Positions 547 through 41,374 of a stretch of DNA of 64,000 nt are shown one piece after another. Below the pieces are notes generated by a model, which did no database searches, was not told the DNA's origin, and worked only from the letters and a program-made list of their open reading frames with translations. The stretch spans positions 1,385,862-1,449,861 of the forward strand of contig CBDBNU010000003.1 of NCBI GenBank assembly GCA_965207845.1. Direction: 5' to 3'. The first letter of the stretch is position 1; each line of letters starts with the position of its first letter. The DNA is from Dehalococcoidia bacterium (GTDB taxonomy: Bacteria > Chloroflexota > Dehalococcoidia > Lucifugimonadales > GCA-2712585). The translations under genes were made by a program, and so were the position numbers.

Positions 547-3327
547 TTAAGATTCCTCCACTGAAACTTGCTCTTGGAGTCCAAGATCAGTGAGAGCTTG
601 TCGTAATTCCAACTGAAAGCCCTGGGCCAGACCCGCATCGACGCTCACCGAGAACTCGACTCCCACGCTCAGGGCATTCCCAGTACGAAGCTTAGGCAAA
701 ATTCTCGTGCCGAGCCGGTTCCAGACTTCAGGAGGTACAGTTCCTTTGAGCCGTAGGGTTGCTTTCCGGCCCGTCTTAATGGGCAACTGGACCTGGGTTT
801 CATCTGGACCTGGCGATGAGCCCGGCTCACTCGCTTTTTCCTCAATTGGGACTACTTCCGGCTGTACAGGCTTAGCGTTTTCCGAAGCCGCTTGGAGTTC
901 CTCAGCTTTCGCCTTGGTCAACAGGAAGACCCCAGACTCAAATGCCACTTCTTCTGATCCAACCGGTTTCTTGAACCATAATCTTGTGTAGTTGCCGCCT
1001 TCCTTATCTCCGGAGGCGAGACCGAAGTCCCCTTTTTCAACGAACTCCATTATGCGCCGCCGTAGGACCGCATCCGGGTCGATCAGCCGCGTCAGTGCGC
1101 CGTTAAGGAAGCTCTGACGCAGGCTGGTCAACGGCCAAGCTCCGGAGTTTTTGAACGCAGGAGGCCAATGCCTATCGATGTATCCGGCGCCGACGGATTC
1201 GTTGAGTAGCGCACTCGACTTCAAAGCTGCGATGACGCGCCCACACAGAGTCTCGCTACCGCTTGAATGTCCCGCTCCGAGGTCAATGACCTTCAATCCG
1301 CCTTCAGCTTGGTTATCGGCCAGAGCCACAAATCGGTAGCCCCCCCATACTTCGTCTTTCGCTGCTGCCTCCGCTTCCTTTACCATGACCTGAACTTCTG
1401 CTCGGTCGCTACGGTCGAATTCTGCACCAAGGATGCCCTGGGAGACCTCATGGGCGACTCGCCGCCAGGCAAGCAACAGCTCGACACTCTCTCTAAGCTC
1501 GCGGCCTGGCTTCCTTGCGCACCACACCAATGCCCCAGGATATAGTCGCGCCGACCTGCCCCGCTCTTTAGTCCACCTACCGATACGTTCCGCCAGTTGC
1601 TCACCTTCTCTCCACTCTTCCACAGGGTCAAGGACAATCATCGTAAGCCGAAGCGAATCCGGCACCGCATCGCCGTCCTTCGGGAAGTAAACGATCGGGA
1701 CAGATGCGCCGCGAGCGAATTCACCTTCTACTTGTTTACGCAATGCAGGCCTGATCTCTGTCTCCTCATCGAGGGAGGCACGACGGTCGCTAACGACTTT
1801 TCTCAGCGTCGCCTGATGGTGAATGCGGTAGCCGTCAGTGCCCATCTTACGCATGAAAAAGCCGGTTTTCTCCAGGGTTGTCGCAGCATTGTCGACGGTT
1901 GTAGTCTCGACCTCCGGCTCTCCGAGGGCAAACCGCAGCTCCGGCAAGTGGGCAACCTTCTCCACCTGCCCACCGGAAGACTCGAACAGGATGGCAGTTC
2001 CCACCCTGCGGTGGATGTCGCGTAGAGCGCCCTTGAAGTCCACATCGAGGGCCTTGCTATGTGCGGTCTCGCCCGCGATATCCGCATCTATGGCCACGTC
2101 TAGGCGGGACTCGCCCAACTGACCCAGTACCACGGCACGAAACTCGGGCACTTCTAACGGTGCTGAGCCGAGGGTAATCAGGGGCTCAGAGCGAGCGTGC
2201 CGAAACTGGTCCTGCGCAGCCCAAGATATCCACTGCGCCAACATTGCCAAGGCTCCCCTGGTCTGTTGGAACTGAGGAAGGGCGCGCCACTTCCGTTGGA
2301 ATACGGAGAGGGTGGACGGATGGAACGGATAGGACGACTCGAATCGTCTGCGGAGAAAGTCCTGAGCCTTGCTTCCGGTGGTAGCCGTATCTACAACTGT
2401 CCACTCGAAGGGGAGCCTGGCGGTCCTCTCGAAGCACCATTCGGCATAAGTCCTAGACACATTCCGACGGACTCGCTCGCTGCCCAGGTCTTCGAAGAGT
2501 CGACGGCGCACCACTTCGCTTATCTCCGACTCGTCATTCGCAATAAGGTCGCGGGCGACGCGGCGGACAACCTTTGTGATGCGGTCCTGCCATTCCTGGT
2601 CCCACGCTGTCATCTCCACCTGGCTACGCGGCAGGCTTATGACCGCCGCTGCATGAGTCGTTCCAGTGATGGCGACAGTTAAATTTTGGAGAAACGCGTG
2701 GAAACTCTCTGACATGCCTCTGTGCCTATTTACGAAGTTCAGCACTTCGTCGAACAGAATCAACACGGGTGCATTAGCTGCGGCAAACACTCTGGCTAGA
2801 GCTTCAGTCCCCGGCGGTGTCGTCTGCGCTGCGCTGCCCAGTGCGGCAACACCTGCATCTCCCGCAAGCTGTCTAGCCAGATCGATCCATGGTGTTTCTC
2901 TCCCTTCCGACGGGTCCCAGGCGTTACCAACGAAGACACCGACTCGGGCATCAGGGCTATCAGTAACGCCGGCGTTGTGCAGAAGCTCGGTAACGCCGGG
3001 AAGGTTACGGGCCTCTCTTCCCGCATTAGCGAGGTGATATAACGCAGTGAGTGTATGAGTCTTCCCGCCTCCAAATTGGGTTACCAAAGTCAGCACTGGC
3101 GCAGTGTTCTCGGTCCTGCCGAAAAGTCGGCGAAGAACCATGCCGGAATGCTCCGTCAAGGCGCGGGTAAAGCATGTGCGCGAGAAAAACTGCTCCGGCT
3201 CACTGTAGTCCAGAGGCGCAGTTCCCGCCACCACCTGCTCTAAGGCGATAGCAAACTCGTCCGGGCTAAAGGAACGGCCCTCTCGGACTTCCTTGCGTAG
3301 CTTCACTACTCTGTACCAGGGTTGCAT
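547..3327 (-). CDS. DUF499-family P-loop ATPase (COG1483-like), partner of DUF1156 methyltransferase
   Basis: 926-aa ORF. N-terminus MQPWYRVVKLRKEV...FFSRTCFTRAL...TQFGGGKTHTLTALYHLA matches the DUF499 signature, including the GGGKTH P-loop. Its ATG directly abuts the stop of the upstream ORF (3328). Confidence 0.85.
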   Translation of the reverse strand: MQPWYRVVKLRKEVREGRSFSPDEFAIALEQVVAGTAPLDYSEPEQFFSRTCFTRALTEHSGMVLRRLFGRTENTAPVLTLVTQFGGGKTHTLTALYHLANAGREARNLPGVTELLHNAGVTDSPDARVGVFVGNAWDPSEGRETPWIDLARQLAGDAGVAALGSAAQTTPPGTEALARVFAAANAPVLILFDEVLNFVNRHRGMSESFHAFLQNLTVAITGTTHAAAVISLPRSQVEMTAWDQEWQDRITKVVRRVARDLIANDESEISEVVRRRLFEDLGSERVRRNVSRTYAEWCFERTARLPFEWTVVDTATTGSKAQDFLRRRFESSYPFHPSTLSVFQRKWRALPQFQQTRGALAMLAQWISWAAQDQFRHARSEPLITLGSAPLEVPEFRAVVLGQLGESRLDVAIDADIAGETAHSKALDVDFKGALRDIHRRVGTAILFESSGGQVEKVAHLPELRFALGEPEVETTTVDNAATTLEKTGFFMRKMGTDGYRIHHQATLRKVVSDRRASLDEETEIRPALRKQVEGEFARGASVPIVYFPKDGDAVPDSLRLTMIVLDPVEEWREGEQLAERIGRWTKERGRSARLYPGALVWCARKPGRELRESVELLLAWRRVAHEVSQGILGAEFDRSDRAEVQVMVKEAEAAAKDEVWGGYRFVALADNQAEGGLKVIDLGAGHSSGSETLCGRVIAALKSSALLNESVGAGYIDRHWPPAFKNSGAWPLTSLRQSFLNGALTRLIDPDAVLRRRIMEFVEKGDFGLASGDKEGGNYTRLWFKKPVGSEEVAFESGVFLLTKAKAEELQAASENAKPVQPEVVPIEEKASEPGSSPGPDETQVQLPIKTGRKATLRLKGTVPPEVWNRLGTRILPKLRTGNALSVGVEFSVSVDAGLAQGFQLELRQALTDLGLQEQVSVEES

Positions 3328-3705
3328 CTATTCTTCACCTCGCTCCAGATTTTCCCTTGAGCGAATACGTACTCGGTTCCGCGTCACTACAATCAGCGAC
3401 CCTTCGCGCATGGCGTTCGGACGGATCACGATGAGTTCCCGCATAGCCTCGACCTTCTCTGCTACCGGCATATCAACGAAGCGCACTATGCACGGATGGG
3501 GCAGCCCACGTACGAATACCAACTCCCCGAAGTCCTTGTCTTCGGTGATGAGTATCCGGTCCTCCCCCACCGCAAGGGCCATGATCTCTTGATCTGTGGC
3601 TTTCTGATCAACGTCGAGGGCTGACAGAACATCGTGCCCTTCCTCAATCAGCATGGAGTGCATGCTCCGTGACGCCGCGCATACGTCAAGAAGGAATCTC
3701 ATCAC
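3328..3705 (-). CDS. DUF5615 (Mut7-C/PIN-like) putative toxin
   Basis: 125-aa ORF. The motif DQEIMALAVGEDRILITEDKDFGELV is typical of DUF5615 proteins. It starts 2 nt after a DUF433 gene. Confidence 0.75.
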   Translation of the reverse strand: MMRFLLDVCAASRSMHSMLIEEGHDVLSALDVDQKATDQEIMALAVGEDRILITEDKDFGELVFVRGLPHPCIVRFVDMPVAEKVEAMRELIVIRPNAMREGSLIVVTRNRVRIRSRENLERGEE

Positions 3706-3707
3706 GC

Positions 3708-3956
3708 CTACCGGACGGCCATGCGCTCATGTACCTGCTCACCTGCCATTGAACGGTGGGCGTACAGCAGGCACGCTCGAATGTCGTCGGACTCTAGGAA
3801 TGGATACTCACTCAGAATCTTTTCCGTCGTTTCGCCAGATGCAAGCATTCCCAGGACGTTCTCCACCGATATCCGCATATCGCGGATAATTGGCTTACCC
3901 CCAAATACGTCCGGGCGTACAGTAATGCGATGTAGAATCTCGTGATCGTCTGTCAT
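3708..3956 (-). CDS. DUF433 putative antitoxin
   Basis: 82-aa ORF. ITVRPDVFGGKPIIRDMRISVENVLGMLASGETTEKILSEYPFLESDDIRACLLYA matches the DUF433 pattern. Confidence 0.8.
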   Translation of the reverse strand: MTDDHEILHRITVRPDVFGGKPIIRDMRISVENVLGMLASGETTEKILSEYPFLESDDIRACLLYAHRSMAGEQVHERMAVR

Positions 3957-4409: not shown

Positions 4410-7409
4410 TTACCTAGGTGCTGCTAATAGCATAGCATCCAGCAGTCGCTTCTCCTCGCTCCCGCGCGGGTAGAGGGCGGTAAGGGCGTTTGCGAGGCGA
4501 AGGAATTCAGGGCCGCGGTCCTGTTCTGAGCGTAGCAGGTTGCGCAGGGCTTGGCTCCGGCCTGAAGCTTGCAGCAGCATGGCCGCATGAACCCGATCCA
4601 GCGTGGTCGCGGACAACGTCAGCCCGGAGCTGTCGTCGATCGGAGATGATGACCTTCTGCGACGGCGTGTGCGGCCCCGTATTGGCGGGGCGCCCTCCGG
4701 AAACAGGCTCAGCTGGGGATTGACATTCGCTACCGACTCCATCTCGTTGGCAATTGTGTCGGTTCCTGACTCACCGAAGAGCTGCTTGCTCCGCTCGGTG
4801 ACGGGGAGCAATCGCACCACGCCCTTCCTAGTCTCGATGATGCGGGCCTCCCATTCATCCAGATGGATTCCCAAAGGTTGGGCGAACCGTCGCGCTACGT
4901 CGAATGGCAGGCTGAAGCCGTACGACTTCCTGCGTGGCGCTCCATCCTCTTCGTCGTTGGAGTCCGTTCCGTTTGCGGGGTGCGGAACCTCCGACGTGCT
5001 TTGCATGGTCCAGAGGAACAGTGCAGTCAGGCGGGAGTCCTCCTCCAACGGACCTGCCACACCGTTGCGGGCCTGAGCCTCCGCTGTACCCAACACCTGC
5101 TCCAACGCCTCGCGGCCGACGACCTCCCACACCTTTTCCAGGTACTCCGGCAGACCGACTTCCCGGCCTTCCGCTGTCTCTACGGCGCGATATCGGCTGT
5201 AAATCTCCAGGGCCGGGCCAACGCAGGCGAACACTAGATCCGCGCCCCGGACACCCTCTCCTTGGAGCCGCTGCATCCAATCGCCAACACGGTCAGGCAA
5301 TTCCTGCAGAACGTCGGCCCAATCGCCTATCGGCGCATCCTCTGGCCGTGGGCGACAGATTAGATGGATGCTAGTGGCCAAAGCCGCGGATTCACGAGCA
5401 CGAAGCCGCGAACCCATCTCAGTAGAAATGGGCCAGGAACCTGTGATAGTCCAGCCGCCACGAGTCATGCCGGAAAGCAGAGCCTCCCACCCCTCAGTGG
5501 TCTTGTGGGCAAATACCACTGAACCTACGCCATCCTCACGTAGCACGCGGCGACCTTCGTAGAAGGCCTTTGCCATTGCCTCTTCAAACCACTGACGGGT
5601 TTTGCGCCGTCCACCATCGAGTTTTGTTTCGTCTTGCACGATCTCTCGCACCTTGGGTGACGACGGATTGTCTAGGTGGAACGGATTTTGCAGTAGAGAG
5701 TGAATTGGAAGAGAGCGCTCAAGCCAGACCAAGAAGAAGTCGGCAAGATCGGCGTAGGGCACCGCGTCGTAATATGGAGGATCCGCAAAGTAAGTGCTCG
5801 CTGCTTGGTCAGGTAGCGGGTGCTTAGTGGCATCCACGGATTGAACCTGACCTATATTCGAGAGGTTTTGTTTCTCAATTACCTTCGCAACCCACTCTAC
5901 ATGGGCCATCCAGTTGCCCGTCGCGTTGCAAAGAGGGTTTGATTCTGTAAAATCCCATACCATTGGCAGCACTTGTCGGGCGAAAAGGTGAGAAACCTTT
6001 TCGCCCGACAAGTGCCATGACCCTAAATTAGAACAATAATCTGCATTTTTTGAGACAGCCAGTGCCAAGCTGGTGCGTACTGGATGGAGCGTGGACTCGC
6101 CAACTACTTTATTTACGAGACTTACCAGCAGAGTTAACGCAGCCTTCTGACGAGCGGTGAACAGGTCTCCCCATTGGAACATTCCGTATCGTTGGACACT
6201 GAAAGCTCGACCTGCACCGGAGCCTCCACCCGCCGGAGTCGACTCATTGGGCACGGGGCTTAGTCCCTGTCTCCCACTCCGCTCCCATTTTCCAATAATG
6301 CTCGCTGTGCGCTCTTGTGCAAATCGAACTGCAACGTAGTCGGCATCGGTAGGCAGTCGGTAGTGGCGACCTTTTTCACCAGACTTGAGCGTAACCACAG
6401 CAATCAAGCGTGCACCACCGACGCGGTTACAATTCTCGTCGAATACCGCGTCTGCACCGCCGCGCAGTGCAGAAATCTGAGCGCGGACTCGTTGCGGCGG
6501 TAGCACTACGCCGCAGCAGATGCATGTTGCCTTTGCGCGAGAGACCGTGCCGTTGGCTACTTCTCTATCGGACTCCGGCTGGAATATCTCGAAATCAATT
6601 TGTGGAGGCCCATCGGTGGACTGCTTCTCTTGGGGTCGCAGCGCGAACTTTCGGTTGGGCTTCCGGCACAACCACATAGAGCGCATCAGGGGAATCTCGG
6701 CGCCACAGTCAGGGGCCTCGCAACGCACTGTCCGCGCCCAGAGATAGGCTATGGTCGTCGCGCCGTCCGGGTCTTTAGGGTAGAGGTCGGCCAGTTCCTT
6801 TTCAGCCTGGGCCTTGATCTCTGCACCAGCCTTGCGCAGTTCATCGGCCAATCCGGGGCCGTGGCGAGGAATGTCCTCCAGCAAAACCTTGAGGATCAGG
6901 CAGGCGACGGGATTGAGGTCGCTGGCAAAGGTGTCGCAGCCGAGGCGCAGGGCTTCAAGGGGAATGGAGCCGCCACCCGCAAAGGGGTCCACCACCAGCG
7001 GGGTCTCCTCCGGGTGTGCGGCCCTCACTAGGTTGCGCCCAGTCTCTAGGTACTCCTCCTTTGCCGAGTTATCCCAGTTGGCAAAGTCGGCGATAAACTT
7101 CAGAAGGGCTCGCCGAAGACCCACGTCCGCCTTGATCTGCTCATCCCACCCGCCAGGGCGAGTTCTCATCGCCAGCAGAATCTCCCGCGCACGGGTCTTG
7201 AATGCCTGCGGGCAATGTTCGTCGCACGGGTCCGGCAGTAGCAACTCCATGAGCACAGCCCGCGACGATGCTAAGGGCCGGCGCGCCCACCAGAGATGCA
7301 GCGTTGAAGGGTGTCCATGCCGGATAGACTTTTCCCGCACCGCGTGCCGTGACACCTCCGCAATGGGGAAGTCAACCTCGGCTAGGCGTTTACAGGCCGC
7401 GGGGATCAT
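4410..7409 (-). CDS. DUF1156-domain DNA methyltransferase with Zn-ribbon (COG1743-like; N6-A/N4-C class)
   Basis: 999-aa ORF. N-terminus REKSIRHGHPSTLHLWWARRPLASSRAVL is the DUF1156 hallmark. AdoMet motif VVDPFAGGGSIPLEA, catalytic FADPPYYD, and Cys pairs CEAPDCG...CICCG (Zn ribbon). Confidence 0.9.
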   Translation of the reverse strand: MIPAACKRLAEVDFPIAEVSRHAVREKSIRHGHPSTLHLWWARRPLASSRAVLMELLLPDPCDEHCPQAFKTRAREILLAMRTRPGGWDEQIKADVGLRRALLKFIADFANWDNSAKEEYLETGRNLVRAAHPEETPLVVDPFAGGGSIPLEALRLGCDTFASDLNPVACLILKVLLEDIPRHGPGLADELRKAGAEIKAQAEKELADLYPKDPDGATTIAYLWARTVRCEAPDCGAEIPLMRSMWLCRKPNRKFALRPQEKQSTDGPPQIDFEIFQPESDREVANGTVSRAKATCICCGVVLPPQRVRAQISALRGGADAVFDENCNRVGGARLIAVVTLKSGEKGRHYRLPTDADYVAVRFAQERTASIIGKWERSGRQGLSPVPNESTPAGGGSGAGRAFSVQRYGMFQWGDLFTARQKAALTLLVSLVNKVVGESTLHPVRTSLALAVSKNADYCSNLGSWHLSGEKVSHLFARQVLPMVWDFTESNPLCNATGNWMAHVEWVAKVIEKQNLSNIGQVQSVDATKHPLPDQAASTYFADPPYYDAVPYADLADFFLVWLERSLPIHSLLQNPFHLDNPSSPKVREIVQDETKLDGGRRKTRQWFEEAMAKAFYEGRRVLREDGVGSVVFAHKTTEGWEALLSGMTRGGWTITGSWPISTEMGSRLRARESAALATSIHLICRPRPEDAPIGDWADVLQELPDRVGDWMQRLQGEGVRGADLVFACVGPALEIYSRYRAVETAEGREVGLPEYLEKVWEVVGREALEQVLGTAEAQARNGVAGPLEEDSRLTALFLWTMQSTSEVPHPANGTDSNDEEDGAPRRKSYGFSLPFDVARRFAQPLGIHLDEWEARIIETRKGVVRLLPVTERSKQLFGESGTDTIANEMESVANVNPQLSLFPEGAPPIRGRTRRRRRSSSPIDDSSGLTLSATTLDRVHAAMLLQASGRSQALRNLLRSEQDRGPEFLRLANALTALYPRGSEEKRLLDAMLLAAPR

Positions 7410-9388
7410 TTGTGCCGTGCCTCGGATTGAGTCTTGAGGGAAACAACATTGTTGATGATAGTCTTCATAGACTCGCTGGACTTACCGTTTAATGTTGCAT
7501 TCTTGACGACAAATCCAAGAATCGATGGATTTTTGAGCGCGTGGTCTCTCTTGAGGATGCCTAATTCTTGTTGGGCCCTCGATAATTCTCGTGTGAATGG
7601 TTCCTTGCCTATTTCATCTTCCAAAGTCTTTTCTAAATTTACCTTGAAACAAGCGAAAGATTCTTCGATGATGCTTGGCCAATCTTCTTCGGTTTGGCCA
7701 AGAAGCTGGAGTAGATATCTGTTAGTTTCAGGTTTTCCATCCCTGTTGCCACAATCGCCGTCCCATACCACATACACCGGAATGCTCAGTTGTCTGAAAA
7801 TCACCAAGGGTCGGTCAAGATTGTTCTTGCCAAAACATGGAATGATCGTAATGCCCATACCATCAAGGTCAAGGTTCATTGATTTTGCGAATCCAAGAAT
7901 AGCAGCTCGGTCATCCTCTCCCTCAACCAAGACTACTACATCGGCAAAGAATCCCTCTCCCATCCAGGGAGTCATTAGGGATCGGAGGCGGGGCTGAAGT
8001 GTGTCAGACGTAAATTTTGCACCTTTTCGGCCACTCGCACTCCAAAGTTCGTCAGCGACTGCTTCCATATTGGCTGTCTTGAGTTGCGTACTCCTAGCCT
8101 TACCTTTGGCATGAGTAACCTTTCGCAAGACTCGTATCTGGTCGAAGCGGTCTAGCCCAACGAATAACGGGGAGTGCGTAGCGTAGATTACCTGAGTGTT
8201 TTGGGCGACCCCCGGGATCACCCCTGTAGACAGATTCAACAAGACCGTAGCTAGATGACGTTGACGGCTAGGATGCTGGTATAGCTCCGGTTCCTCAATT
8301 GCAAGAACAAGATTTGGCAGGAGAGGACCTTTGGCTTCTGCACTAGTCTCGTCTTCTTCGTCGGTCCCGCTATTCGGCGTGGGATCCGAATGTCTGATGG
8401 CGTCAAGATGTTGCAACATCGTGATGATGAAAGCCCGTTGGAGACCGTGCCCTGTCCTCTCCACCCTAGATTCGTATTCATCCTCTAAGAGCTTGACTTG
8501 TGCTTGCGGCAAGGGTATCGAGATCTCCATGAGTTCAGACCAGTTGAGGAGCACTTTTGTATCCGGTACGTATGATTGAAGAGTCGTGGACAAGTCATCT
8601 GCTAAATTGTCCAATTCCGTTAGCTTCCTTGGGTCCATTACTTGCTCATACTCGTCTTGTGTACGTTGTTTGAAATCCGCTACATCTTTTCTCTCGGAGA
8701 GCGCACTTCGGACAACCAGATCCATAATTTCTGTGACTGATGCTCCTCTCCTCTCATTTGCATCCTCCATAGCATCTCTCACAGCCGGTATGAATATGAA
8801 CCTAGTATATCGGCCGAGATAGCCTTGACCTACTTGTGTAAAGCCAAAGAACTGCCCATCGTCACGTAGTGGCAAACACTTGTCAGGATTCTGGTTTTCC
8901 CATTCGGCTAAATTCTGTCGTACCGCATCTGCTGAACGCGCAGCGGGCAAAGATGAGTATTCTGGGGTTTTCCTAAGGGCAGTGTAAGCCCGATTAACGT
9001 CCCTAGCGCCACCAGCATTTCTTACGAACGCAAAATCTTGATTCTGCAGCCGCATTCCATGATAAGTGCCTGACTTCCCCTTCTGCGGATCAGAAAAAAC
9101 CCTAACTACCGTTAGTGTGTCATTATCAAGATAAGGCGAGAAAAACTCCCTGGCTTCTTGACTAAGGCCTGAGAATGTGACGGCTATCTCAATATCTTGG
9201 GTCAAGTCTTCTGAGTAAAAATCCTCTACCGCCACCCTCGCTGATACGTTATAGAAGAGTTCTAGCGCGTTCAAAAATGAGGACTTTCCAGAACCGTTCC
9301 GCCCAACCAGTGCCGTAAGAGAATCACAGGGTAGGGTCTCATCAAAGATAGACCGCAAATTCTTCACATGGACTCTTTCAATCAGCAA
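7406..9388 (-). CDS. OLD-family nuclease (ABC-type ATPase + Toprim)
   Basis: 660-aa ORF. Walker A GRNGSGKSS, Walker B LVLAIEEPELYQHP, H-loop ATHSPLF, Toprim VVLVEGEDDRAAI and VVWDGDCG. Overlaps the methyltransferase start by 4 nt. Confidence 0.85.
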   Translation of the reverse strand: MLIERVHVKNLRSIFDETLPCDSLTALVGRNGSGKSSFLNALELFYNVSARVAVEDFYSEDLTQDIEIAVTFSGLSQEAREFFSPYLDNDTLTVVRVFSDPQKGKSGTYHGMRLQNQDFAFVRNAGGARDVNRAYTALRKTPEYSSLPAARSADAVRQNLAEWENQNPDKCLPLRDDGQFFGFTQVGQGYLGRYTRFIFIPAVRDAMEDANERRGASVTEIMDLVVRSALSERKDVADFKQRTQDEYEQVMDPRKLTELDNLADDLSTTLQSYVPDTKVLLNWSELMEISIPLPQAQVKLLEDEYESRVERTGHGLQRAFIITMLQHLDAIRHSDPTPNSGTDEEDETSAEAKGPLLPNLVLAIEEPELYQHPSRQRHLATVLLNLSTGVIPGVAQNTQVIYATHSPLFVGLDRFDQIRVLRKVTHAKGKARSTQLKTANMEAVADELWSASGRKGAKFTSDTLQPRLRSLMTPWMGEGFFADVVVLVEGEDDRAAILGFAKSMNLDLDGMGITIIPCFGKNNLDRPLVIFRQLSIPVYVVWDGDCGNRDGKPETNRYLLQLLGQTEEDWPSIIEESFACFKVNLEKTLEDEIGKEPFTRELSRAQQELGILKRDHALKNPSILGFVVKNATLNGKSSESMKTIINNVVSLKTQSEARHK

Positions 9389-9395
9389 GGCTTTG

Positions 9396-9614
9396 TCACT
9401 TTATTCGTTTGGTTGGATAACGCTCTCTGATGTGCTTATGGAAGTAAGAGCCTTTGGAGCCCGCTTGCATAAGGCTTATATTGACTGTTGTAGGCACGTT
9501 TGCGTATAGGTAAATTCTGCCTCCATGAAACTCAATCTCTAAGGTTTGTGTTAGTGGGTCATAGCCTACTGAGAGAATGTTACTTGACCTGATTCGTTCT
9601 CTATCCATCAGCAT
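9396..9614 (-). CDS. KTSC-domain protein (copy 1)
   Basis: 72-aa ORF. SSNILSVGYDPLTQTLEIEFHGGRIYLYANVP...SKGSYFHKHIRERYP follows the KTSC pattern. Its start overlaps the helicase stop by 14 nt. Confidence 0.8.
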   Translation of the reverse strand: MLMDRERIRSSNILSVGYDPLTQTLEIEFHGGRIYLYANVPTTVNISLMQAGSKGSYFHKHIRERYPTKRIK

Positions 9615-12600
9615 TCTCGATTCCGTACTCCGCCCGATCCTCCCGCACCTGCATCGGCTTGGTCATAGAGTCCACTTCCAGCCAGTAGTGCTGCAATTTG
9701 CTGACCTCGTGCCAGGGGAAACGGGCAGGATCCTCAATGGGCTCTTGCAACTGCGGCTCAGCGGCACAGTTCGTCACTACGTAGAGCCAGTAGCAGTCGC
9801 GGCGGTCCTCGGCCACGCGGCGCTCATTGGGAGTTAGTAGGATCGTGCCCGATTCGGCAGCTAAACCCTTGACTTCTATGAGGCGCAACTCGCCGGACAC
9901 GACGTCCAGGCTGGTTACGTCGTAGCCCAGATTCTTCTCATGCACGTCGCAGACCTGTTTGCCCTGAGCTGCTTCGTACTCCATCACGACTTGCATGGCG
10001 GTCATCTCGGTCTCGGCGTTAGGACGCAGGCGCTTCACCTCGGGTGCCTCACGCTCCGGGTGAGGCAAGATAAGTGCACCGGCGAGCCGTTCGACGCCTT
10101 GGAGTGTGAGCGCCCGCTGTTGCCTGAGTTCGCTTCTCCGCCGTTCACGCCGCGCCATGGCCTCGTCGTGGCGGGCTTCGGCCTGGGCGAGACGCCCTTC
10201 CGCGCCGACGACCCGATTCTCCAGGTCCTCGGAAGCTCGGCCAATCTCTTGGTCGATTCGCTGAAGCACCTCAGTCAACGACAGTTCAACGTGCTCGGCG
10301 ATCCGGTCCACTTCGTCCAGACGCTCGTCGCGTACTTCTTCGATGAAGGGTGCGAGGGCGTGCTCATGCAGCCATCCTGTGGCTTCAGGGAGTGCGGCGG
10401 CAGCAGGGAGATTGTGCGGAGGGGGTGCGGGAATAAGATTGCCGAGAATATCAGCCTCTCTCAAGCCTGGCTCCCCGGTCTCCGTCAGTTCCACGACGAA
10501 CAGCCGCTCGTGGATAACGTGGCCGAGGCCGTCAACGACTCTGGCACGGTAGACATCGAGACGGGCCGGTGCGTTGTGGTCGAGGGAGTAGAAACACGCA
10601 CCCATGGCGAAAGCATCCCTGCTGGTTTCGACGCAGTGACGGCGGAGCGCTTCAAAGAGGGGATGTCCGGGGGTTACCCATTCCAGGTTGTGTGCCTCTG
10701 CCGTGTCTCGGTCTGTCGAAAGGCGGGAGTAGCGTGTCAGGAGATCTGAGAAACGCCAGTCGGAATCGCGTTCGTATTTCCGCAAGGAGGTCGGTGTACG
10801 GCCCGGATGGAATGCATGTCGTAAGTTCGTAACTGGATTAAGTGCAAACGCTGCGATTTTGGAACTCTCTGACAGAAATCTAGCGATGGTCTCCGGCACC
10901 ACTCGACGCTCCTGGGCCCGGGCACGGCGCTCTACCAACATCTCCAAATTGAGCTTCTTGGCAGCCAGACCTTCCAGCGCAGTCTGGCAGATCTCACGGA
11001 AGCGTCCCTCGTCCACGTCTCGCAAAAGCCGGTTCTCCAAGTCTTCTGGTCCCAACTTACCGGAATAGTAGTCGCGGAAAATTCGGTCAACCTGAGCGGC
11101 TGGCAGAACCTCGCCAACCACATTGAAAACAGCGTCGTCGTCGAGGGCGTCGCGAATCTCCTGAAGCTTCGAAAGCAGGCGTTGGAGCACCCTTCCTTCG
11201 ATAGTGTTCGTGGCGACAAAATTGAAAATAAGGCAGTCTAGGCGTTGCCCATAGCGGTGGATTCGCCCCATCCGTTGTTCGAGTCGATTTGGGTTCCAGG
11301 GGATGTCGTAGTTGAAGAGAATATTGCAGCATTGAAGGTTTATTCCTTCACCGGCGGCTTCCGTCGCCACCAGCACTTGAATTTGGCCATCTCGAAACTG
11401 TTGTTCCGTGTAGAGGCGGGAACCAGGCTCATCCCGCGAGCCTGGCCTCATGCCGCCATGGATGGAGCCCACACGGAAGCCCCAGGATTTCAGCCTGCCT
11501 ACCAGGTAGTAGAGGGTATCCTTGAACTCCGTGAAGATTAGCAGGCGTTGGTCAGAATTGTCGAAAAACCCCTGCTCATGCATGATTTCGTTGAGGCGGG
11601 TGAGTTTGGCCTCCTTGTCCTCCGCCTCGACAGTTACGGCCTGCTGCGCAAGCTGTCGGAGTTCGTCAATCTCCTTCCGAACCTCATCAGCGTTCCCGGC
11701 CAATGTGACTGCTTCTAACATCCGTTCCAGCCGCTCTCGCTCCCTGTCTTCCAGTTCTTCCAATTCCTCCCAATCAGGGAGGTCTGGAGGCGCTTTCTCC
11801 GCCAAGTCTTGTGCTTGCTTAAGTCCGTCCTCCAGACGCTTGGATCGGTTCTCCAGCGACCGCTGCATTGCATGGGCGCTTGAGGCTAACCTCCGTTGGT
11901 ACAATGACATGAGGAAACCGACGGCGCGCGCCCGTGGGTCGTCACCCTGAGATGCAGCTCTGGCACTTTGCCGCTTCACGAATCGGGTTACGTCTCTATA
12001 CAGATCAAATTCTGGCCCGTCCATTGTGAAGCTAGCGGAGTTTGTGACTCGCTTCGTAAACACAGGCTTGGCTGTCCATGTGCCGTCTATGTGGCGATCG
12101 GGGAAATAAACCATGGCTTCCTTGGTGCGGCGGAGGTAGAAGGGCGCCCGCCTGCGCTTCATCGCCTCTCGTATAGACTTAACGTCGGCATATGCATCCT
12201 TGTCTAGAAGTTGTAGAAACAGAGTGAAGTTGTGCGGGTCTCCCTTGTGAGGCGTAGCGGTAAGAAGCAGAATGTTGTCGGCGTTATCCCGCAACATTTC
12301 ACCAAGTCGGTAACGCTGACTCTTATGTGTCTCGTCGCTTGCAGACATACGATGGGCTTCATCAACTATCACGAGGTCCCATTGTACTTGGCGAAGGCCG
12401 TGGAGAATGTCTTCCCTCTTGGCTAGGTCGAGGGAGGTGATGGTCTGCCTCTGTTCAAGCCACTGATTGATGCCGAACTGATTTCGAATGTCTCCGCCCT
12501 TCAGTACAAAGAACCGCTCGTCAAACTTTTCATTTAGTTCTCGCTGCCACTGGAAGGTTAGGTTTGCCGGGCACACTACAAGGACTCGTTCAGCCAAGCC

Positions 12601-13044
12601 TCTAAGCTTCAGTTCTTTGATAAGCAGTCCGGCCATGATTGTCTTTCCGGCTCCGGCGTCATCGGCCAGCAGGAACCGTACGCTAGGGAGCTTCAGCAGA
12701 TAGTCGTAGATGGCTTCAAGCTGATGTGGAAGAGGATCAACTCGCGAAATGGATAGACCGAAATACGGGTCAAACTCGTAGGCGATGCCGAGAGAGTGGG
12801 CTTGGAGGCCAAGTCTGAGTAGCCTCCCGTCCCCATCGTAAGAGAGGGTGCTGTCGGCAATGGTTAATTCCGCAATATCGGTCGAGGTTATAGTGACCTG
12901 ACGGAATAGTTGGGTCCGCTGTCCGACAAGGCCCGCCTCGACGGAGCCAGCTCCGTTCGAACGGACGGTCACCACCCGCATCGGCTCATTGAACAACGGG
13001 CCAGTAAGGACCTGACCTTCACGTATTCCAATTTCGGTCGTCAA
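9601..13044 (-). CDS. SNF2/DEAH helicase fused to C-terminal DUF3883 (PD-(D/E)xK-like) nuclease domain
   Basis: 1147-aa ORF. LADDAGAGKTIMAG (motif I), VIVDEAHRM (II), LLLTATPHKG (III), WNPNRLEQRMGRIHRYGQ (VI). C-terminal GYDVTSLD...LRLIEVKG...YWLYVV is typical of DUF3883. Confidence 0.9.
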   Translation of the reverse strand: MTTEIGIREGQVLTGPLFNEPMRVVTVRSNGAGSVEAGLVGQRTQLFRQVTITSTDIAELTIADSTLSYDGDGRLLRLGLQAHSLGIAYEFDPYFGLSISRVDPLPHQLEAIYDYLLKLPSVRFLLADDAGAGKTIMAGLLIKELKLRGLAERVLVVCPANLTFQWQRELNEKFDERFFVLKGGDIRNQFGINQWLEQRQTITSLDLAKREDILHGLRQVQWDLVIVDEAHRMSASDETHKSQRYRLGEMLRDNADNILLLTATPHKGDPHNFTLFLQLLDKDAYADVKSIREAMKRRRAPFYLRRTKEAMVYFPDRHIDGTWTAKPVFTKRVTNSASFTMDGPEFDLYRDVTRFVKRQSARAASQGDDPRARAVGFLMSLYQRRLASSAHAMQRSLENRSKRLEDGLKQAQDLAEKAPPDLPDWEELEELEDRERERLERMLEAVTLAGNADEVRKEIDELRQLAQQAVTVEAEDKEAKLTRLNEIMHEQGFFDNSDQRLLIFTEFKDTLYYLVGRLKSWGFRVGSIHGGMRPGSRDEPGSRLYTEQQFRDGQIQVLVATEAAGEGINLQCCNILFNYDIPWNPNRLEQRMGRIHRYGQRLDCLIFNFVATNTIEGRVLQRLLSKLQEIRDALDDDAVFNVVGEVLPAAQVDRIFRDYYSGKLGPEDLENRLLRDVDEGRFREICQTALEGLAAKKLNLEMLVERRARAQERRVVPETIARFLSESSKIAAFALNPVTNLRHAFHPGRTPTSLRKYERDSDWRFSDLLTRYSRLSTDRDTAEAHNLEWVTPGHPLFEALRRHCVETSRDAFAMGACFYSLDHNAPARLDVYRARVVDGLGHVIHERLFVVELTETGEPGLREADILGNLIPAPPPHNLPAAAALPEATGWLHEHALAPFIEEVRDERLDEVDRIAEHVELSLTEVLQRIDQEIGRASEDLENRVVGAEGRLAQAEARHDEAMARRERRRSELRQQRALTLQGVERLAGALILPHPEREAPEVKRLRPNAETEMTAMQVVMEYEAAQGKQVCDVHEKNLGYDVTSLDVVSGELRLIEVKGLAAESGTILLTPNERRVAEDRRDCYWLYVVTNCAAEPQLQEPIEDPARFPWHEVSKLQHYWLEVDSMTKPMQVREDRAEYGIENADG

Positions 13045-16157: not shown

Positions 16158-17837
16158 CTAGAGCAACTTAGCGGCATCTACCTCAGGAAGGTGGCATTTC
16201 TTGTACTTTAGGCCGCTCCCACAGGGACAAGGCCTATTCCTTCCAGTCCTATGCATGTCTCGTAGTGCTCGAAGATATTCCCTTTCCGCCCTTACGAAAT
16301 CGTGCGGGTATTCCTTCCATAAGTCATTGCGAGCGGCCTCGAGGCCGTGGTGTTCCACGTACGCTACTCTATAGAAGAACGGGACAACCAACTCCCCAAT
16401 GAACTTCGGGACATTGATCCTCTCGCCGGTTGCAATCTTGAAATCTAGACAACATCGATTCTCTGGCTTTTCTGGATAGCAGTGCATATCGGCGATGTTG
16501 GTTATTCCCTGTTTTTCCATGATGCCTTGAATGCGCCCACTCGTCTCAATGACCGGTGGCCAGGGGTCATATCTTGAGGGGATAAAGCTGAGTCGAAGCT
16601 CGATTTCAAACCTGTCGCGGATGATGAAGCCTTCTCGAACCGCTCCTGTTGCCGACGCCGATTTCAAGAGTCCATCGCTGGGGTCATATTGTACTGAGAA
16701 TTCCAGTGTCCCAAAGATTCGGTTGCTTTGGGCTTCGTAGATTAGGCCGGGCTGCTCCCGGTTCAGGCGGCCAATGTCGACGTCAGACATTGAGACGGTG
16801 ACACCCTTGACTTCGGCATTCTTTATGGCAGTTGCAGCATACGGACTTCGCGGCCTTACCGGAGCATAAGGCGGCAATACAGTCCGGCCTCCGCTGGGAC
16901 CGCCGGGTGGTTTGCCTAGAGATGCGTCCCCGTCGCCACCCTTAGAAGATCCTTTGCCAAAGTCGTCGCCGAATAGTCTTCGCCACAACTTGATCGCATC
17001 CTCACTCGATACTGCATCCTTAGCATCTCTTGCAGACTGGGCATGAGAGTGAATCCTGTTTCTGAAGTTGGCGTATTTGGTCTGATCCCAGTGCCTGTTG
17101 AAGGTTTCCGACGGAAGCACCGGATTCCGGATCTGAGGCATTATGGGATGTAGCTGAAGGAATTGGTCTATTCTACCGAGTACCGTCACCAATGTATCAG
17201 CGACAGTTCGCACCGCTTCAGTCCCCTCGTCCCACTCTTCTATCGTGTTTCCTGCAAGAGTGGTGAGTAGAATAGATTTGGCGGTGAAATTGTTCTTGTG
17301 GTCTCGAAGGTATTTCAGCAATCTGACCACTCGCTTGAGATTGCCATCCGTGATCCGGTTACGATGGTTGAATCAGTCTCGGTAGCCCGTTCCATCAGTC
17401 TCCTCGAGTTCATTGTCAATCCGATTGCAGACAAAGTGTTCGCCGTCGATGGTGATGCGGGGAACCACGTCAAGATGAAAGTCACCGGCGTAATCGACCG
17501 TAACGCATCGGGTCTTGAGACGAAGCTTGTCGGCGTAATTTTTGTTCTCGTTCAAGGTCCTGCGAATTGTGCTGACGTATTCTTTGGCTTCCCACTCGTC
17601 ATTCGGGTTCATTACGATCTGCATATCGGCGTCGTATTCGTCGTTCTCATCAACGGGCTTTATCAGCGTGCCAAGGGCATGTGAGCCCTGACGCTCCATC
17701 TTCTGGTACCCGGTTAGGTTGTCCCGTAGGTAGCTGTTCACCGCCGAAACACTGGTATTCAACCGGTCAAGCCGGGTTGGGTTTAGATTGACTTCATCCC
17801 GGAGAAAATCTTGGAAATCCCTGTTGTTCTTTGTCAT
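16158..17837 (-). pseudogene. SMODS/CD-NTase-like nucleotidyltransferase fused to an unassigned C-terminal domain ending in a SEC-C motif; interrupted by one in-frame TGA
   Basis: ORFs 17373-17837 and 16158-17330 are in the same frame (507 nt apart). They are separated by TGA at 17373-17375 in the context GYRD*FNHRN. NTase motifs are QGSHALGTLIKP and EYDADMQIV, followed by VVRLLKYLRD. The C-terminus is RPCPCGSGLKYKKCH. Confidence 0.75.
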
Positions 17838-25693: not shown

Positions 25694-25921
25694 TTAACCT
25701 ACCCTTGAATACGGAAAGGCGTTCTTTATGTATTGACTGAGGAATTGTCCCTTCGATGACGTCTGCATGATCTGCTGATGAAGGAATTCTGGAACTCCAA
25801 AGTATTGGTATGTCCAGCCACTAAGGAACTCAACCTCAAGGGTCTGTGTTGAAGCGTCATAGCCAATTTCTCTGATGTTTGACGATGCCACATGATATCT
25901 GTCCATCTGGGTCCTCCTCAC
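25694..25921 (-). CDS. KTSC-domain protein (copy 2)
   Basis: 75-aa ORF. SSNIREIGYDASTQTLEVEFLSGWTYQYFGVP...SKGQFLSQYIKNAFP. Overlaps the herA stop by 4 nt. Confidence 0.8.
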   Translation of the reverse strand: MRRTQMDRYHVASSNIREIGYDASTQTLEVEFLSGWTYQYFGVPEFLHQQIMQTSSKGQFLSQYIKNAFPYSRVG

Positions 25922-27750
25922 TCGTTAGCAGAGTCGTCCTTGACGGGAGTTCGTGTGATATTTTGGTCGATGACGACCGCGAGCGGACTCTGAGCTCGCC
26001 ATGAAGCTACAACTCGTTCATACCCTTCCTCTCGCCTCGCCATGCCCCAATTGGTGCTTACGGGTGGATCCTCACTACGCGGCCTATGTTCTTTAGCAGG
26101 TAGGGTGATACGGCAGCGCATAGGGAGTTTCGCCGCCTCTCCTGTAACAACGGCTTCTCCAGTTCGGAGAATGGGCAGCACATCGAGAAGGCCAACAAGC
26201 CCGTCCGGCAACGCTCCTCGGACACGTTCGCGGTCAGATGGATTCGATAGTCGAAGGGCAAAGAACGTTCCACATTGCGATAATATTGTCTCATTCACTT
26301 CTGAGGGTCGCTGGCTGACCATCATGGCACCCACCCCATACTTCCTGCCTTCCTTGACAATCCTTTGCACTACCTCAGATGCTGTGCCACTCAATCTGTC
26401 TGACAAGTAGCGATGTGCTTCTTCCATCACGACCAGCAAGGGGCGACTGATTCCACCTTCCGACTTTTCTCGACTCCAAAAGAGTGCTTCGTAGACAATT
26501 TTCAGGATCGATCCCACCAACCGTTCAAGTACGCTGCTTGGTATCCCGGACAAGTCGAGGATGGTAATAGGTTTTTCACCACCTAACCACCTGGCCAAAA
26601 GTTCATCCAAGTCTCTTGTTGGCTTTCCATCAAGGTCGGGCTCCCAAGGTCCAGGGCGCAATAGGAAGCCATAGCGCCGATCAAGCAATCGCGAACGTAC
26701 TAAGTTCAGTGGACGCTGTATTCCAAAGGCTCGTGGATTCAGGAAAGGGCCAGCGGCACCCATAGCATGAGGCTTATAAGTAGGTGGCGTTAGAGCGTCA
26801 GCGTTACCAGGTTCCTGTAGGGTCGGTTGGTCGCGATTCGGCCCATCAAAGGTTGTGATCTCGAAGTCAGTAAGATCGTACCAAAGCTTCTTGAGGCTGA
26901 AAGGCACGGGAGTGTCGACAGTAATCGATTCGGAGTCAACTCCCGGAAACTTCTGCGAGTCTTGAGCTGCCAACTTGAGCTGATATATCTTGTCTGTAAA
27001 CGCTGTTTCACTGTTACCCTCCAAACCGCCTGTCAAAAAATCTAACAGGTCGTCACTGTCGAGCGCCCAATATGGAATGAACAATCGCTCTTCGTCGTAT
27101 TGCGGCTCAACACTGAACACTTGAGCAACGTCAGCCAGAGGCACTGAATACTCACCGTGAATGTCAAGTAGAAGGACGCGGGCATTCGGGTATTCTTCAG
27201 AATCTCGGTTGGAGGTCGTTATAGCCCTCATGAGACTTGCGATTGTAGTAGACTTCCCAGAGCCAGTAGACCCAAGCACTGCGGAATGCCGGGTTACCAG
27301 CTCGTTTAAGGCAATCTTCGCCTCGATGCTCTCGGCGCTGGCGAGTGTCCCGATCACTATGTGACCCTGCCCACGAATATCATACAGTTCACGCAGGTGC
27401 TCCTCAACTGCTAGATGGACTGAGTCCCCGATGTTTGGGTACTGACTGACCCCGCGTTCGAAGGTCCCCCCCACAACTTCTCCCACTAGCTCTACCTTCA
27501 TCCATCGACCAGTGTCGTCTATTGATTCCAAGTTGTCAGGCACAGCATTTGCGCCAACCTCGGTAACAACTCCAAACAGGTCTTGATAGCCTTGTGGCAC
27601 TCTAACGAAACTGCCGACCTGCCCAATCTTGTAGGTTTGGCCCTTGAATATCGATAAACCAGATGCAACTGACTCAGCGAGGTGAACGCTAAGTGCAGCT
27701 CCAGAAACTGTTGCGATCGACCCGAGAAAAGTAGGATCGCGACTTAGCAT
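25918..27750 (-). CDS. herA: HerA-like (DUF87) ATPase of a SIR2-HerA defence pair
   Basis: 610-aa ORF. Walker A LGSTGSGKSTTI, Walker B LLVVMEEAHRYL. Its start is contiguous with the SIR2 gene stop. Confidence 0.9.
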   Translation of the reverse strand: MLSRDPTFLGSIATVSGAALSVHLAESVASGLSIFKGQTYKIGQVGSFVRVPQGYQDLFGVVTEVGANAVPDNLESIDDTGRWMKVELVGEVVGGTFERGVSQYPNIGDSVHLAVEEHLRELYDIRGQGHIVIGTLASAESIEAKIALNELVTRHSAVLGSTGSGKSTTIASLMRAITTSNRDSEEYPNARVLLLDIHGEYSVPLADVAQVFSVEPQYDEERLFIPYWALDSDDLLDFLTGGLEGNSETAFTDKIYQLKLAAQDSQKFPGVDSESITVDTPVPFSLKKLWYDLTDFEITTFDGPNRDQPTLQEPGNADALTPPTYKPHAMGAAGPFLNPRAFGIQRPLNLVRSRLLDRRYGFLLRPGPWEPDLDGKPTRDLDELLARWLGGEKPITILDLSGIPSSVLERLVGSILKIVYEALFWSREKSEGGISRPLLVVMEEAHRYLSDRLSGTASEVVQRIVKEGRKYGVGAMMVSQRPSEVNETILSQCGTFFALRLSNPSDRERVRGALPDGLVGLLDVLPILRTGEAVVTGEAAKLPMRCRITLPAKEHRPRSEDPPVSTNWGMARREEGYERVVASWRAQSPLAVVIDQNITRTPVKDDSANE

Positions 27751-28992
27751 TCAGATCTCCTTGTCCTTGGGCGGAGCAGAGTTTGTATCACTTTCGTCGT
27801 TTGCACCATCGTTTGGATCTTCCAGCCTATGTACCTGAGTTAACGCGAGGAATCTTGCAAACTTGGCGAAATCCCCCAGCAGGAATTCTCCCTCCCTGTT
27901 GTCCGAAGGGGAACTCCAGAACGTGTGTCGAATAGCCTCCCATTCTTCGCTCAGGGGTTGGCCGGGCTCCCACCGACCAGCAACTCCGCTTATGATTGCA
28001 CCGTCACGTGCGAAAACACTTAGATTTGGGCGTAAACGTGCCATAGATGCAACTGCTGCTTCTTCTCGGAGCGTCTTGTATTGAAACGCAAAGATTGCGG
28101 AATGGGCGTTTGCTGTCATAGCTTCTTCGAGCACGGCGCAAATGTGGGCATCAAAGAACGAAAAACCAGAGCACAAGAGAAGTGTATCGGGGCTCATGAG
28201 GAAAGAGCGTAACCGTTCGAACAGAGCGGAATACGGCTGCCTAGTAACTTGTTCGTACTTTAGATGATCCGGATAAATGAGTTCGGTTGCTATTCTGCTC
28301 CCGGTTCTGATCACCGTATCGCCGGAGATTTCCCAGCCGAGAGAACCGTGAAGCTTCCACAGGCGAGTCCAACGTGCGGGAAGTACATCGGTGGAGACAC
28401 TCGCGGCGTCGAAGAATGGCCTGTACGAACCGCTGAAGCCATCGAAGTAAGGAGCGCGTGCTCGTTCCAAAGCTTCTTCGACCAATAGGTCGTAGTTAGG
28501 GGTAAATATTTCTATGGGGTTTAGCCGCATTGTTCCGGAGATCCAGGAGGCAACCTCAGAATATGGATTGTGGCAATTCGGGAGAGTGGTGTTTACATTT
28601 TCCCCGATCTTTTCGCAAATGCGGCGGGCCATTGCATCGTATTTACTAGCGTCTAAGCCATGTACGCTGGCACTTCCTATCGCTTGGCCTAGTTTCCTAA
28701 CTTGAGTGAGAAGGGATTCAATGTTAATTGCCTGTTGTAGGTCCGACTTTAGAATATCGATGATGGCTTTGTCATCATCATCTAAGGCATTTACAACGGC
28801 ATCGGTTAGACCAGCGACATCAGGTATTAGGGGCCGGCCACCTTCTTCTAGTATGAAGCCATTCACATCAACCCGAATGGCAGTTGGAGCACCTGCACCA
28901 AGTAGGATCCCGATTCGCTTACGTCCCTGTGAAAGGATTTGACGCAAGTCTGCCATATAGCGATCTGGATTGTGGATTGTCTTATTCTGCAT
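27751..28992 (-). CDS. SIR2-like (SIR2_2) domain protein
   Basis: 413-aa ORF. RIGILLGAGAPTAI, TPNYDLLVEEAL and LWKLHGSLGW are typical of defence-associated SIR2_2 proteins. Confidence 0.85.
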   Translation of the reverse strand: MQNKTIHNPDRYMADLRQILSQGRKRIGILLGAGAPTAIRVDVNGFILEEGGRPLIPDVAGLTDAVVNALDDDDKAIIDILKSDLQQAINIESLLTQVRKLGQAIGSASVHGLDASKYDAMARRICEKIGENVNTTLPNCHNPYSEVASWISGTMRLNPIEIFTPNYDLLVEEALERARAPYFDGFSGSYRPFFDAASVSTDVLPARWTRLWKLHGSLGWEISGDTVIRTGSRIATELIYPDHLKYEQVTRQPYSALFERLRSFLMSPDTLLLCSGFSFFDAHICAVLEEAMTANAHSAIFAFQYKTLREEAAVASMARLRPNLSVFARDGAIISGVAGRWEPGQPLSEEWEAIRHTFWSSPSDNREGEFLLGDFAKFARFLALTQVHRLEDPNDGANDESDTNSAPPKDKEI

Positions 28993-35563: not shown

Positions 35564-35721
35564 GATGCCGGAGGCCTCACCACATACCCGTCTCGTGGAA
35601 GCTTCCGAGGCGGCATACGCCTCTACAGTTGAAGCCGCCCGGTTGAGGCGCGAATCCCTCCGAGACTCTATAATCAGCCACATTGGCTCTAGACAGGAAG
35701 CGTAACCAGGAGGAGACAACG

Positions 35722-41373: not shown

Positions 41374-41374
41374 C

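Follow-up and report, generated by a model that had tools for sequence, protein, structure and literature searches.

Two genes for the small KTSC domain (KTSC1 and KTSC2) lie in a 64,000-nucleotide (nt) stretch of a Dehalococcoidia bacterium genome (GenBank assembly GCA_965207845.1, contig CBDBNU010000003.1, positions 1,385,862 to 1,449,861; this whole stretch is referred to here as the window). The explanation that we favour, with moderate confidence, is that KTSC serves defence nucleoside triphosphatases (NTPases) as a portable accessory subunit that binds nucleic acid and that the two copies represent two independent modules, one in which KTSC1 is paired with a gene for an OLD-family nuclease and one in which KTSC2 is part of the HerA ATPase of a SIR2-HerA system. 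The two genes are as follows, in window coordinates.

9396..9614, minus strand: KTSC copy 1 (KTSC1), 72 amino acids (aa) from ATG 9614 or 70 aa if ATG 9608 is the start; first gene of the KTSC-OLD cassette
25694..25906, minus strand: KTSC copy 2 (KTSC2), 70 aa from ATG 25906; detached C-terminal domain of HerA

An initial annotation of this DNA had described both open reading frames (ORFs) as KTSC genes with a common motif, had placed a SNF2-DUF3883 helicase before copy 1 and a SIR2-HerA pair before copy 2, and had proposed an accessory role in defence for both. The motif is present in both translations, of which that of KTSC1 begins MLMDRERIRSSNILSVGYDPLTQTLEIEF (72 aa), and both pass the hidden Markov model (HMM) of Pfam KTSC (PF13619, cut-off 25), KTSC1 with 83.7 bits (E 7.3e-24) and KTSC2 with 81.8 bits (E 3e-23). 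The neighbours are likewise as claimed, both genes lie inside anti-phage systems recognised by PADLOC (Hma and SIR2-HerA), and an accessory role in defence, as opposed to chance adjacency, is backed by the comparative genomics described below. The two proteins are 43% identical across 69 residues (BLASTP E 1e-21), both match phrog_3292 and phrog_8113, each of unknown function, and no PADLOC model matches either of them; a third copy was not found in the 64-kb window by tblastn or by the HMM run on all ORFs. When PDB was searched with KTSC1, there were three relevant matches, namely the crystallised KTSC of Methanolobus vulcani (7X8C; 51% identity, E 4e-20, a comparison of sequence only), 4RGI, and residues 628-696 of a 696-aa HerA protein. 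For KTSC2, the AlphaFold2 model (pLDDT, the predicted local distance difference test score, of 95) has the fold of these structures, with Foldseek template modelling (TM) scores of 0.96 to 7X8C and 0.92 to 4RGI.

As judged from gene order, the conserved partner of KTSC1 is very probably the OLD gene directly downstream and not HmaA, the SNF2-DUF3883 helicase upstream to which the initial annotation had coupled it; this assignment was not borne out, as the spacing to OLD is kept and other genes separate HmaA from KTSC in related Hma loci.

7406..9388, minus strand: OLD-family ATP-binding cassette (ABC) ATPase with a Toprim nuclease domain (predicted), 660 aa; AAA_15 E 1e-34, OLD-like_TOPRIM E 5e-18, PADLOC Old E 1.5e-53

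HmaA, KTSC1, OLD and the methyltransferase gene HmaB are chained in the window by overlapping or near-abutting stops and starts, where KTSC1 shares 14 nt with the end of HmaA if it starts at ATG 9614, or 8 nt if it starts at ATG 9608, OLD begins at a TTG (9388) 7 nt past the KTSC1 stop, a start confirmed against a 90%-identical homologue (P0242), and the end of OLD and the start of HmaB have 4 nt in common. The OLD protein holds both of its domains in one chain (AAA_15 at residues 1-410, OLD-like_TOPRIM at 480-545), and its G-x-GKS motif, E489, D543 and D545 are invariant or nearly so in 20 homologues. Its closest solved structure is the Class 1 enzyme TsOLD (6P74, E 1e-22), and it also matches the PADLOC models of GajA and AriA, more weakly.

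Evidence for the pair comes from two samples of loci, in which ORFs were called by a simple longest-ORF procedure and where many of the metagenome contigs are short. The first was seeded with KTSC and comprises the best 80 of 333 loci from species-representative genomes, a selection biased to KTSC1-like sequences, whose fractions are not family-wide frequencies; 35 of these loci have an AAA_15/OLD-Toprim gene immediately downstream of KTSC, usually at 5-8 nt. The second, a metagenome scan seeded from an OLD alignment, left 74 loci with enough upstream sequence to be assessed, and KTSC was seen 3-55 nt upstream of OLD in 35, directly downstream in 4 and not at all in the remaining 35. Inside Hma operons 11 OLD genes had KTSC and 5 had none, and where no Hma genes were nearby the counts were 26 with and 24 without, so that the pairs lie mostly outside Hma and are therefore independent of it. 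KTSC and OLD keep a fixed orientation and spacing in many phyla of bacteria and archaea, while the OLD proteins of the pairs are 44-64% identical, and the presence of KTSC is phylogenetically clustered among OLDs (nearest-neighbour concordance of 79/101, where permutations gave 54 on average and 71 at most). The GC content at third codon positions (GC3) is 0.44 for KTSC1 and 0.475 for OLD, as opposed to 0.61-0.64 for HmaA, HmaB and HmaC, which fits an inserted cassette. KTSC1 and OLD are a conserved, compositionally coherent gene pair, and the distribution of the pair suggests a mobile two-gene cassette that is widespread and apparently undescribed, as no description of it was found in the searchable literature (open-access text only).

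Another member of this group is the crystallised M. vulcani KTSC. The sequence of 7X8C is identical to P0001 and to L022:10001-10210 (Methanolobus vulcani PL-12/M), where a 619-aa OLD-family ORF with a Walker A motif and the Toprim glutamate starts right after the stop of the 7X8C gene (L022:10001-12073). The M. vulcani protein thus resembles KTSC1 in sequence (51% identity), KTSC2 in fold (TM 0.96) and the window cassette in the OLD-family gene that follows at once, and differs in having been characterised as a standalone single-stranded DNA (ssDNA)-binding protein, to go by the title of Tian et al. The 7X8C gene appears to start at a non-ATG codon (its product reads INRENV...). In a Mariniphaga locus (L063:9302-10213), three tandem KTSC genes stand upstream of an OLD-like gene. 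Alignment columns that separate KTSC-linked from KTSC-less OLDs were also sought as a sign of a docking site, and these were scattered positions and a variable low-complexity linker (~329-357), with nothing interpretable.

The window pair does not fall readily into the existing classes of OLD enzymes. Class 1 is defined as a single gene without a dedicated partner, and here KTSC abuts OLD in the window and in 39/74 related loci. The similarity to Class 1 enzymes (P2 Old; Thermus scotoductus OLD 6P74) lies in 6P74 being the nearest solved structure and in the lack of an adjacent UvrD-type helicase; the window clade differs in the abutting KTSC found in about half of cases, and the window copy in its position inside an Hma operon. 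Class 2 (Gabija) does not apply, with the HmaB methyltransferase gene downstream of OLD, nor does Class 4 (PARIS), with ATPase and Toprim in one 660-aa ORF. With regard to Class 3 (retron), the flanking genes are KTSC/HmaA and HmaB, with no adjacent reverse-transcriptase gene, and no search for a retron non-coding RNA was made. Like Gabija (GajA+GajB) and PARIS (AriA+AriB), the cassette joins an OLD-type ABC ATPase to a second co-transcribed protein, whereas this partner is a 70-aa KTSC encoded upstream, neither a helicase nor a separate Toprim protein, and ATPase and Toprim are fused.

In the case of KTSC2, it can be said with high confidence that it is a subunit of HerA, and the two genes that precede it encode a SIR2-HerA system.

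25918..27750, minus strand: HerA ATPase, 610 aa, without a KTSC domain; PADLOC HerA E 1e-158, aligned with 8WIV_A
27751..28992, minus strand: SIR2 NADase effector (predicted), 413 aa; PADLOC SIR2 E 4e-156, aligned with 8W9L

The SIR2 and HerA genes abut at 27750/27751, and both SIR2-HerA system models are matched. The window SIR2 aligns with Paenibacillus SIR2 8W9L (E 5e-72) and conserves the catalytic N163, D165 and H212 (Paenibacillus numbering), and the window HerA has a Walker A motif (GSTGSGKST) that aligns with 8WIV_A. Together with six related entries, 8WIV represents the SIR2-HerA anti-phage complex of Paenibacillus sp. 453MF, where HerA is a HerA central domain-containing protein of 696 aa. 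Residues 10-622 of this protein are covered by the 610-aa window HerA (8WIV_A, E 3e-180) and residues 628-696 are matched by KTSC2 and, in the sequence search, by KTSC1 (E 5e-13); HerA and KTSC2 together therefore make up the fused protein, divided precisely where the two domains meet. The AlphaFold2 model of KTSC2 superposes on the HerA chains of 8WLD, 8WIV, 8WOF and 8WJ3 (TM 0.86-0.90, root-mean-square deviation 1.2-1.3 Å), and the KTSC domain is thus ordered in the cryo-electron microscopy (cryo-EM) structures of SIR2-HerA. The window and Paenibacillus systems (8WIV, 8WLD; PMC11472057) share the order SIR2, HerA, KTSC domain and the catalytic N/D/H, and they differ in that KTSC is fused to HerA in Paenibacillus and encoded by a separate 70-aa gene in the window.

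Both arrangements are found among the closest 120 HerA homologues (78-92% identity), where 118 have no KTSC Pfam hit, most of them being 610 aa long, and two have PF13619 fused (P0204, 669 aa; P0223, 676 aa); inspection of the P0204 locus confirmed the HerA-KTSC fusion. In all three of the split HerA loci that were sampled, a KTSC gene of 70 aa comes 11 nt after SIR2-HerA. The mechanically called KTSC2 ORF (25694-25921) is 75 aa long with a GTG start at 25921, but the true start is almost certainly ATG 25906, which has an AGGAGG 6 nt upstream (25918-25913, spanning the HerA TGA stop), and gene callers place the 70-aa KTSC gene identically in three homologous SIR2-HerA loci. From ATG 25906 the gene starts 11 nt past the HerA stop and therefore does not overlap it, so that the overlap with the preceding stop codon claimed in the initial annotation for both copies holds for KTSC1, at 8-14 nt, and not for KTSC2.

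By these alignments, KTSC2 is predicted to be an integral subunit, fused in some cases, of a system already known, which is in effect SIR2-HerA-KTSC. The link of KTSC to HerA is already documented, and the window version is the split-gene form of a solved system. Iyer et al. 2022 mention HerA coupled to a KTSC gene, and the statement in the initial annotation that KTSC has no described anti-phage role is outdated for copy 2, since the Paenibacillus SIR2-HerA carries the domain fused and resolved by cryo-EM. For that complex, the C-terminal arm domain of HerA (residues 576-696, KTSC included) is described as wrapping around the RecA-like domain of its neighbour and so giving stability to the split-spiral hexamer (NAR 2024, PMC11472057). 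The same paper reports phage protection by SIR2-HerA homologues; it never calls the domain KTSC and reports no separate assay of it. Ahead of the system in several SIR2-HerA-KTSC loci there is a DprA-like (DNA_processg_A) gene with a PIN gene and, in some of them, a SMODS gene (L242:1233-2750, L243:2058-2750), and these genes may form a larger conserved neighbourhood with the system.

The relationship between the two copies was addressed with a neighbour-joining tree of 122 KTSC sequences, in which KTSC1 falls in a large OLD-linked clade and KTSC2 in a HerA-linked clade, and each copy therefore arrived with its own module. A recent local duplication was rejected as their origin, given the 43% identity and the different partner-linked clades. 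OLD-linked, HerA-linked, unlinked and phage members have a conserved core in common, comprising R3, V6, S8-S9-N10, G15-Y16-D17 and L23-E24-x-E26-F27, followed by Y33-Q34-Y35, V38-P39, S51-K/H52-G53, Y55-F56, I60-K61 and Y64. The core is rich in aromatic and basic residues, and its sharing among all these members points to one common biochemical activity and not to partner-specific chemistry. The M. vulcani KTSC has been published as an ssDNA-binding protein, according to the title of Tian et al. 2022 (cited in PMC11237433), and Iyer et al. (Aravind group) annotate KTSC as 'DNA-binding' and 'RNA-binding'. Nucleic-acid recognition is proposed here because of this family member (as titled), these annotations and the aromatic and basic core; the more specific role of KTSC in sensing or targeting ssDNA is a tentative proposal, which we regard as possible rather than probable.

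In the mechanism that we propose, KTSC2 would most likely dock on the HerA hexamer at the site occupied by the fused Paenibacillus domain, in the peripheral arm that contacts the neighbouring subunit, and KTSC1 would bind OLD, as its synteny suggests. KTSC would tether the partner NTPase on, or gate it by, single-stranded nucleic acid that arises from phage replication or DNA-end processing, and KTSC would link this nucleic-acid signal to the activation, driven by the ATPase, of the effector, be it nuclease or NADase. Functional statements on KTSC-OLD are drawn from synteny.

Several observations weigh against such a role. KTSC is missing from about half of the close OLD relatives, some of them 75-83% identical to KTSC-linked OLDs, and that nuclease can therefore do without it; the closest 120 OLD homologues include no KTSC-OLD fusion, and no structure shows the two proteins together. 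The SIR2-HerA system of E. coli is functional without a KTSC domain. Among viral contigs of IMG/VR (best 80 of 119 KTSC relatives), two adjoin SIR2-HerA and none adjoins OLD, and the domain is therefore not specific to defence. In addition, ssDNA left the NADase activity of Paenibacillus SIR2-HerA unchanged (PMC11472057).

Further contexts of KTSC are known from the KTSC-seeded loci, where at least 57 of the best 80 of 333 have KTSC beside one of four main partner types (OLD downstream, HerA, ThiF/E1-like, OLD upstream). In six haloarchaeal loci (L052, L053, L056, L057, L071, L076; ~7000-10210), a Prok-E2_E protein and a ThiF/E1-like protein (597-687 aa) are followed by KTSC, which overlaps the end of the E1 gene by 4 nt; by this arrangement, the predicted third kind of KTSC partner is ThiF/E1-like, of the ubiquitin-like conjugation type of system. 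The reverse order, OLD then KTSC, is also seen in these genome loci, as is an AAA_13 ABC ATPase immediately downstream of KTSC. A pair of SbcD-like (Metallophos) and SbcC/Rad50-like ABC ATPase genes lies immediately downstream of KTSC in two loci, following SIR2-HerA-KTSC in one (L018:10250-14010) and OLD-KTSC in the other (L045:10287-14164). The KTSC genes of phages and prophages are standalone and are frequently close to genes for repressors or anti-repressors. No constant partner was found for them in the viral contigs examined (L162-L241), where the neighbours are heterogeneous and include repressors, anti-repressors and structural genes, so that the viral context offers no hint of function. 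It can be speculated that KTSC is a portable infection-sensing or targeting subunit of OLD, HerA, SbcCD-like and E1-like proteins, which are otherwise unrelated, and that phage KTSC proteins are decoys which compete with or poison the complexes that depend on KTSC, or disturb what the host KTSC senses, forming a module of defence and counter-defence; this broader version would be a long shot.

The system that surrounds KTSC1 and OLD is Hma (type-1 BREX-related), with HmaA, HmaB and HmaC on one strand.

9601..13044, minus strand: HmaA, SNF2 helicase with a C-terminal NOV_C (DUF3883) nuclease domain; PADLOC HmaA E 9e-176, Pfam SNF2-rel_dom, Helicase_C and NOV_C
4410..7409, minus strand: HmaB, DUF1156 N6-adenine methyltransferase; PADLOC HmaB E 7e-118, Pfam DUF1156
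3708..3956, minus strand: DUF433 gene, between HmaB and HmaC; Pfam E 1.4e-22
3328..3705, minus strand: DUF5615 gene, between HmaB and HmaC; Pfam E 1.2e-17
547..3327, minus strand: HmaC, DUF499 ATPase; PADLOC HmaC E 8e-95, Pfam DUF499

The locus of the closest KTSC1 relative (94% identical, L161) has the identical order HmaA-KTSC-OLD-HmaB-DUF433-DUF5615-HmaC; the DUF433/DUF5615 pair, which is toxin-antitoxin-like, occupies the same place there. Ten of the KTSC-seeded loci (best 80 of 333) are Hma operons with the order HmaA ... KTSC-OLD-HmaB-x-HmaC, where HmaA is often set apart from KTSC by RmuC, YhcG or other genes and nothing lies between KTSC and OLD. OLD-type ATPase-nucleases embedded in Hma/BREX-related systems have been described before, as 'backup effectors' and in HEC systems, and the gap between hmaA and hmaB has been documented as a hotspot for inserted defence genes (PMC11232893, bioRxiv 2024.01.29.577857, PMC12839542). 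The window agrees with these accounts in having HmaA, HmaB and HmaC all present, with further defence genes inserted in the hmaA-hmaB and hmaB-hmaC gaps; it differs in the KTSC gene that accompanies the embedded OLD, as none of the three reports, the supplements of PMC12839542 included, mentions a KTSC beside such an OLD.

This arrangement bears on the version put forward in the initial annotation, where KTSC1 would be the functional partner of the HmaA helicase and the same adaptor role would recur with HerA. The overlap of 8-14 nt with the HmaA stop, which is the same in the 94%-identical L161 and gives way to a 4-nt gap in L041, speaks for it; however, most other Hma loci have HmaA separated from KTSC by one or more unrelated genes, Hma genes are absent near most KTSC-OLD pairs, GC3 groups KTSC1 with OLD and not with HmaA, and the gap between the two Hma genes is the insertion hotspot just mentioned, all of which make a partnership with HmaA very unlikely. 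It is more implausible still, to the point of being nearly discounted, that adjacency is meaningless and that KTSC genes are small mobile passengers which gather in defence islands. KTSC genes are indeed common in phage and prophage accessory regions without a constant neighbour, and the window is an island rich in mobile elements, yet a passenger would hardly keep a fixed orientation and spacing to OLD across many bacterial and archaeal phyla, natural HerA-KTSC fusions exist, the KTSC clades are partner-specific, and OLD identities of 44-64% argue against one recently spread element.

Other explanations accept the partners and assign KTSC a different task. KTSC could be a pure assembly or clamp element, with no nucleic-acid role, that stabilises the oligomer of the partner ATPase (the split-spiral hexamer of HerA, or the dimer or tetramer of OLD), as the arm of HerA (576-696) is described as doing when it wraps the neighbouring RecA-like domain and stabilises the hexamer or spiral (PMC11472057), and the domain is ordered in the SIR2-HerA maps. 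The contacts highlighted there, however, are made mainly by helices alpha19-20, which the window HerA retains (aligned to residue 622), the same core is found in standalone phage and cellular KTSC proteins without such a partner, and a family member has been published as an ssDNA-binding protein, by its title (PMC11237433); we regard a clamp as unlikely, while taking it seriously. A quite improbable alternative is that KTSC is an antitoxin-like negative regulator which silences OLD or SIR2-HerA until infection displaces or titrates it. Effectors of the OLD and SIR2 types act by abortive infection, and the KTSC gene is small, precedes a nuclease that may be toxic and seems to be coupled to it in translation. 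About half of the close OLD relatives nevertheless persist in genomes without KTSC, and covalent KTSC-HerA fusions ill fit an inhibitor that has to be released. The nucleic-acid-binding accessory subunit is the explanation that we retain.

The window as a whole (1-64000) is a dense island of defence and mobile-element genes, which includes Hma, KTSC-OLD, a DUF4238 gene, CBASS-like genes, SIR2-HerA-KTSC and a type I restriction-modification (RM) system, together with a 1907-aa Hhe/PDC-S37 protein (29840-35563), GmrSD (51104-52861), an IS110 transposase (22004-23107), an rve integrase fragment, a TrwB-like protein and a relaxase-like protein. In this island, a SMODS/CD-NTase ORF of 154 aa (17373-17837) stands beside a gene for a patatin phospholipase (17934-18863), and a 390-aa SEC-C-motif protein is encoded at 16158-17330; the patatin gene and the short SMODS ORF resemble a CBASS operon, possibly one with a truncated or frameshifted cyclase gene. 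In the type I RM system, the HsdM ORF is 369 aa long (35683-36792) and its match to the 311-position N6_Mtase profile ends at position 195, which suggests that the methylase gene is disrupted; HsdS (38136-39410), a trypsin-like peptidase (39407-40093) and HsdR (41255-44485) lie downstream of it.

OLD nucleases have been sorted by their partner genes, where Class 1 is treated as a lone enzyme with an unknown trigger. The conserved KTSC partner of 70 aa, present in roughly half of one large OLD clade, in bacteria as well as archaea, represents a further two-gene architecture, and KTSC is a concrete candidate for the means by which such OLD enzymes locate or sense nucleic acid. A genomic context is thereby also given to the crystallised M. 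vulcani KTSC, whose gene has an OLD gene as its neighbour. In annotation, a KTSC gene beside HerA is to be read as part of the HerA protein, and one beside OLD as part of a KTSC-OLD cassette and not of the larger system that surrounds it. This is not a new principle, but rather a recurring, testable small subunit common to two tractable defence systems, and the one small family can be probed both with OLD and in the solved SIR2-HerA.

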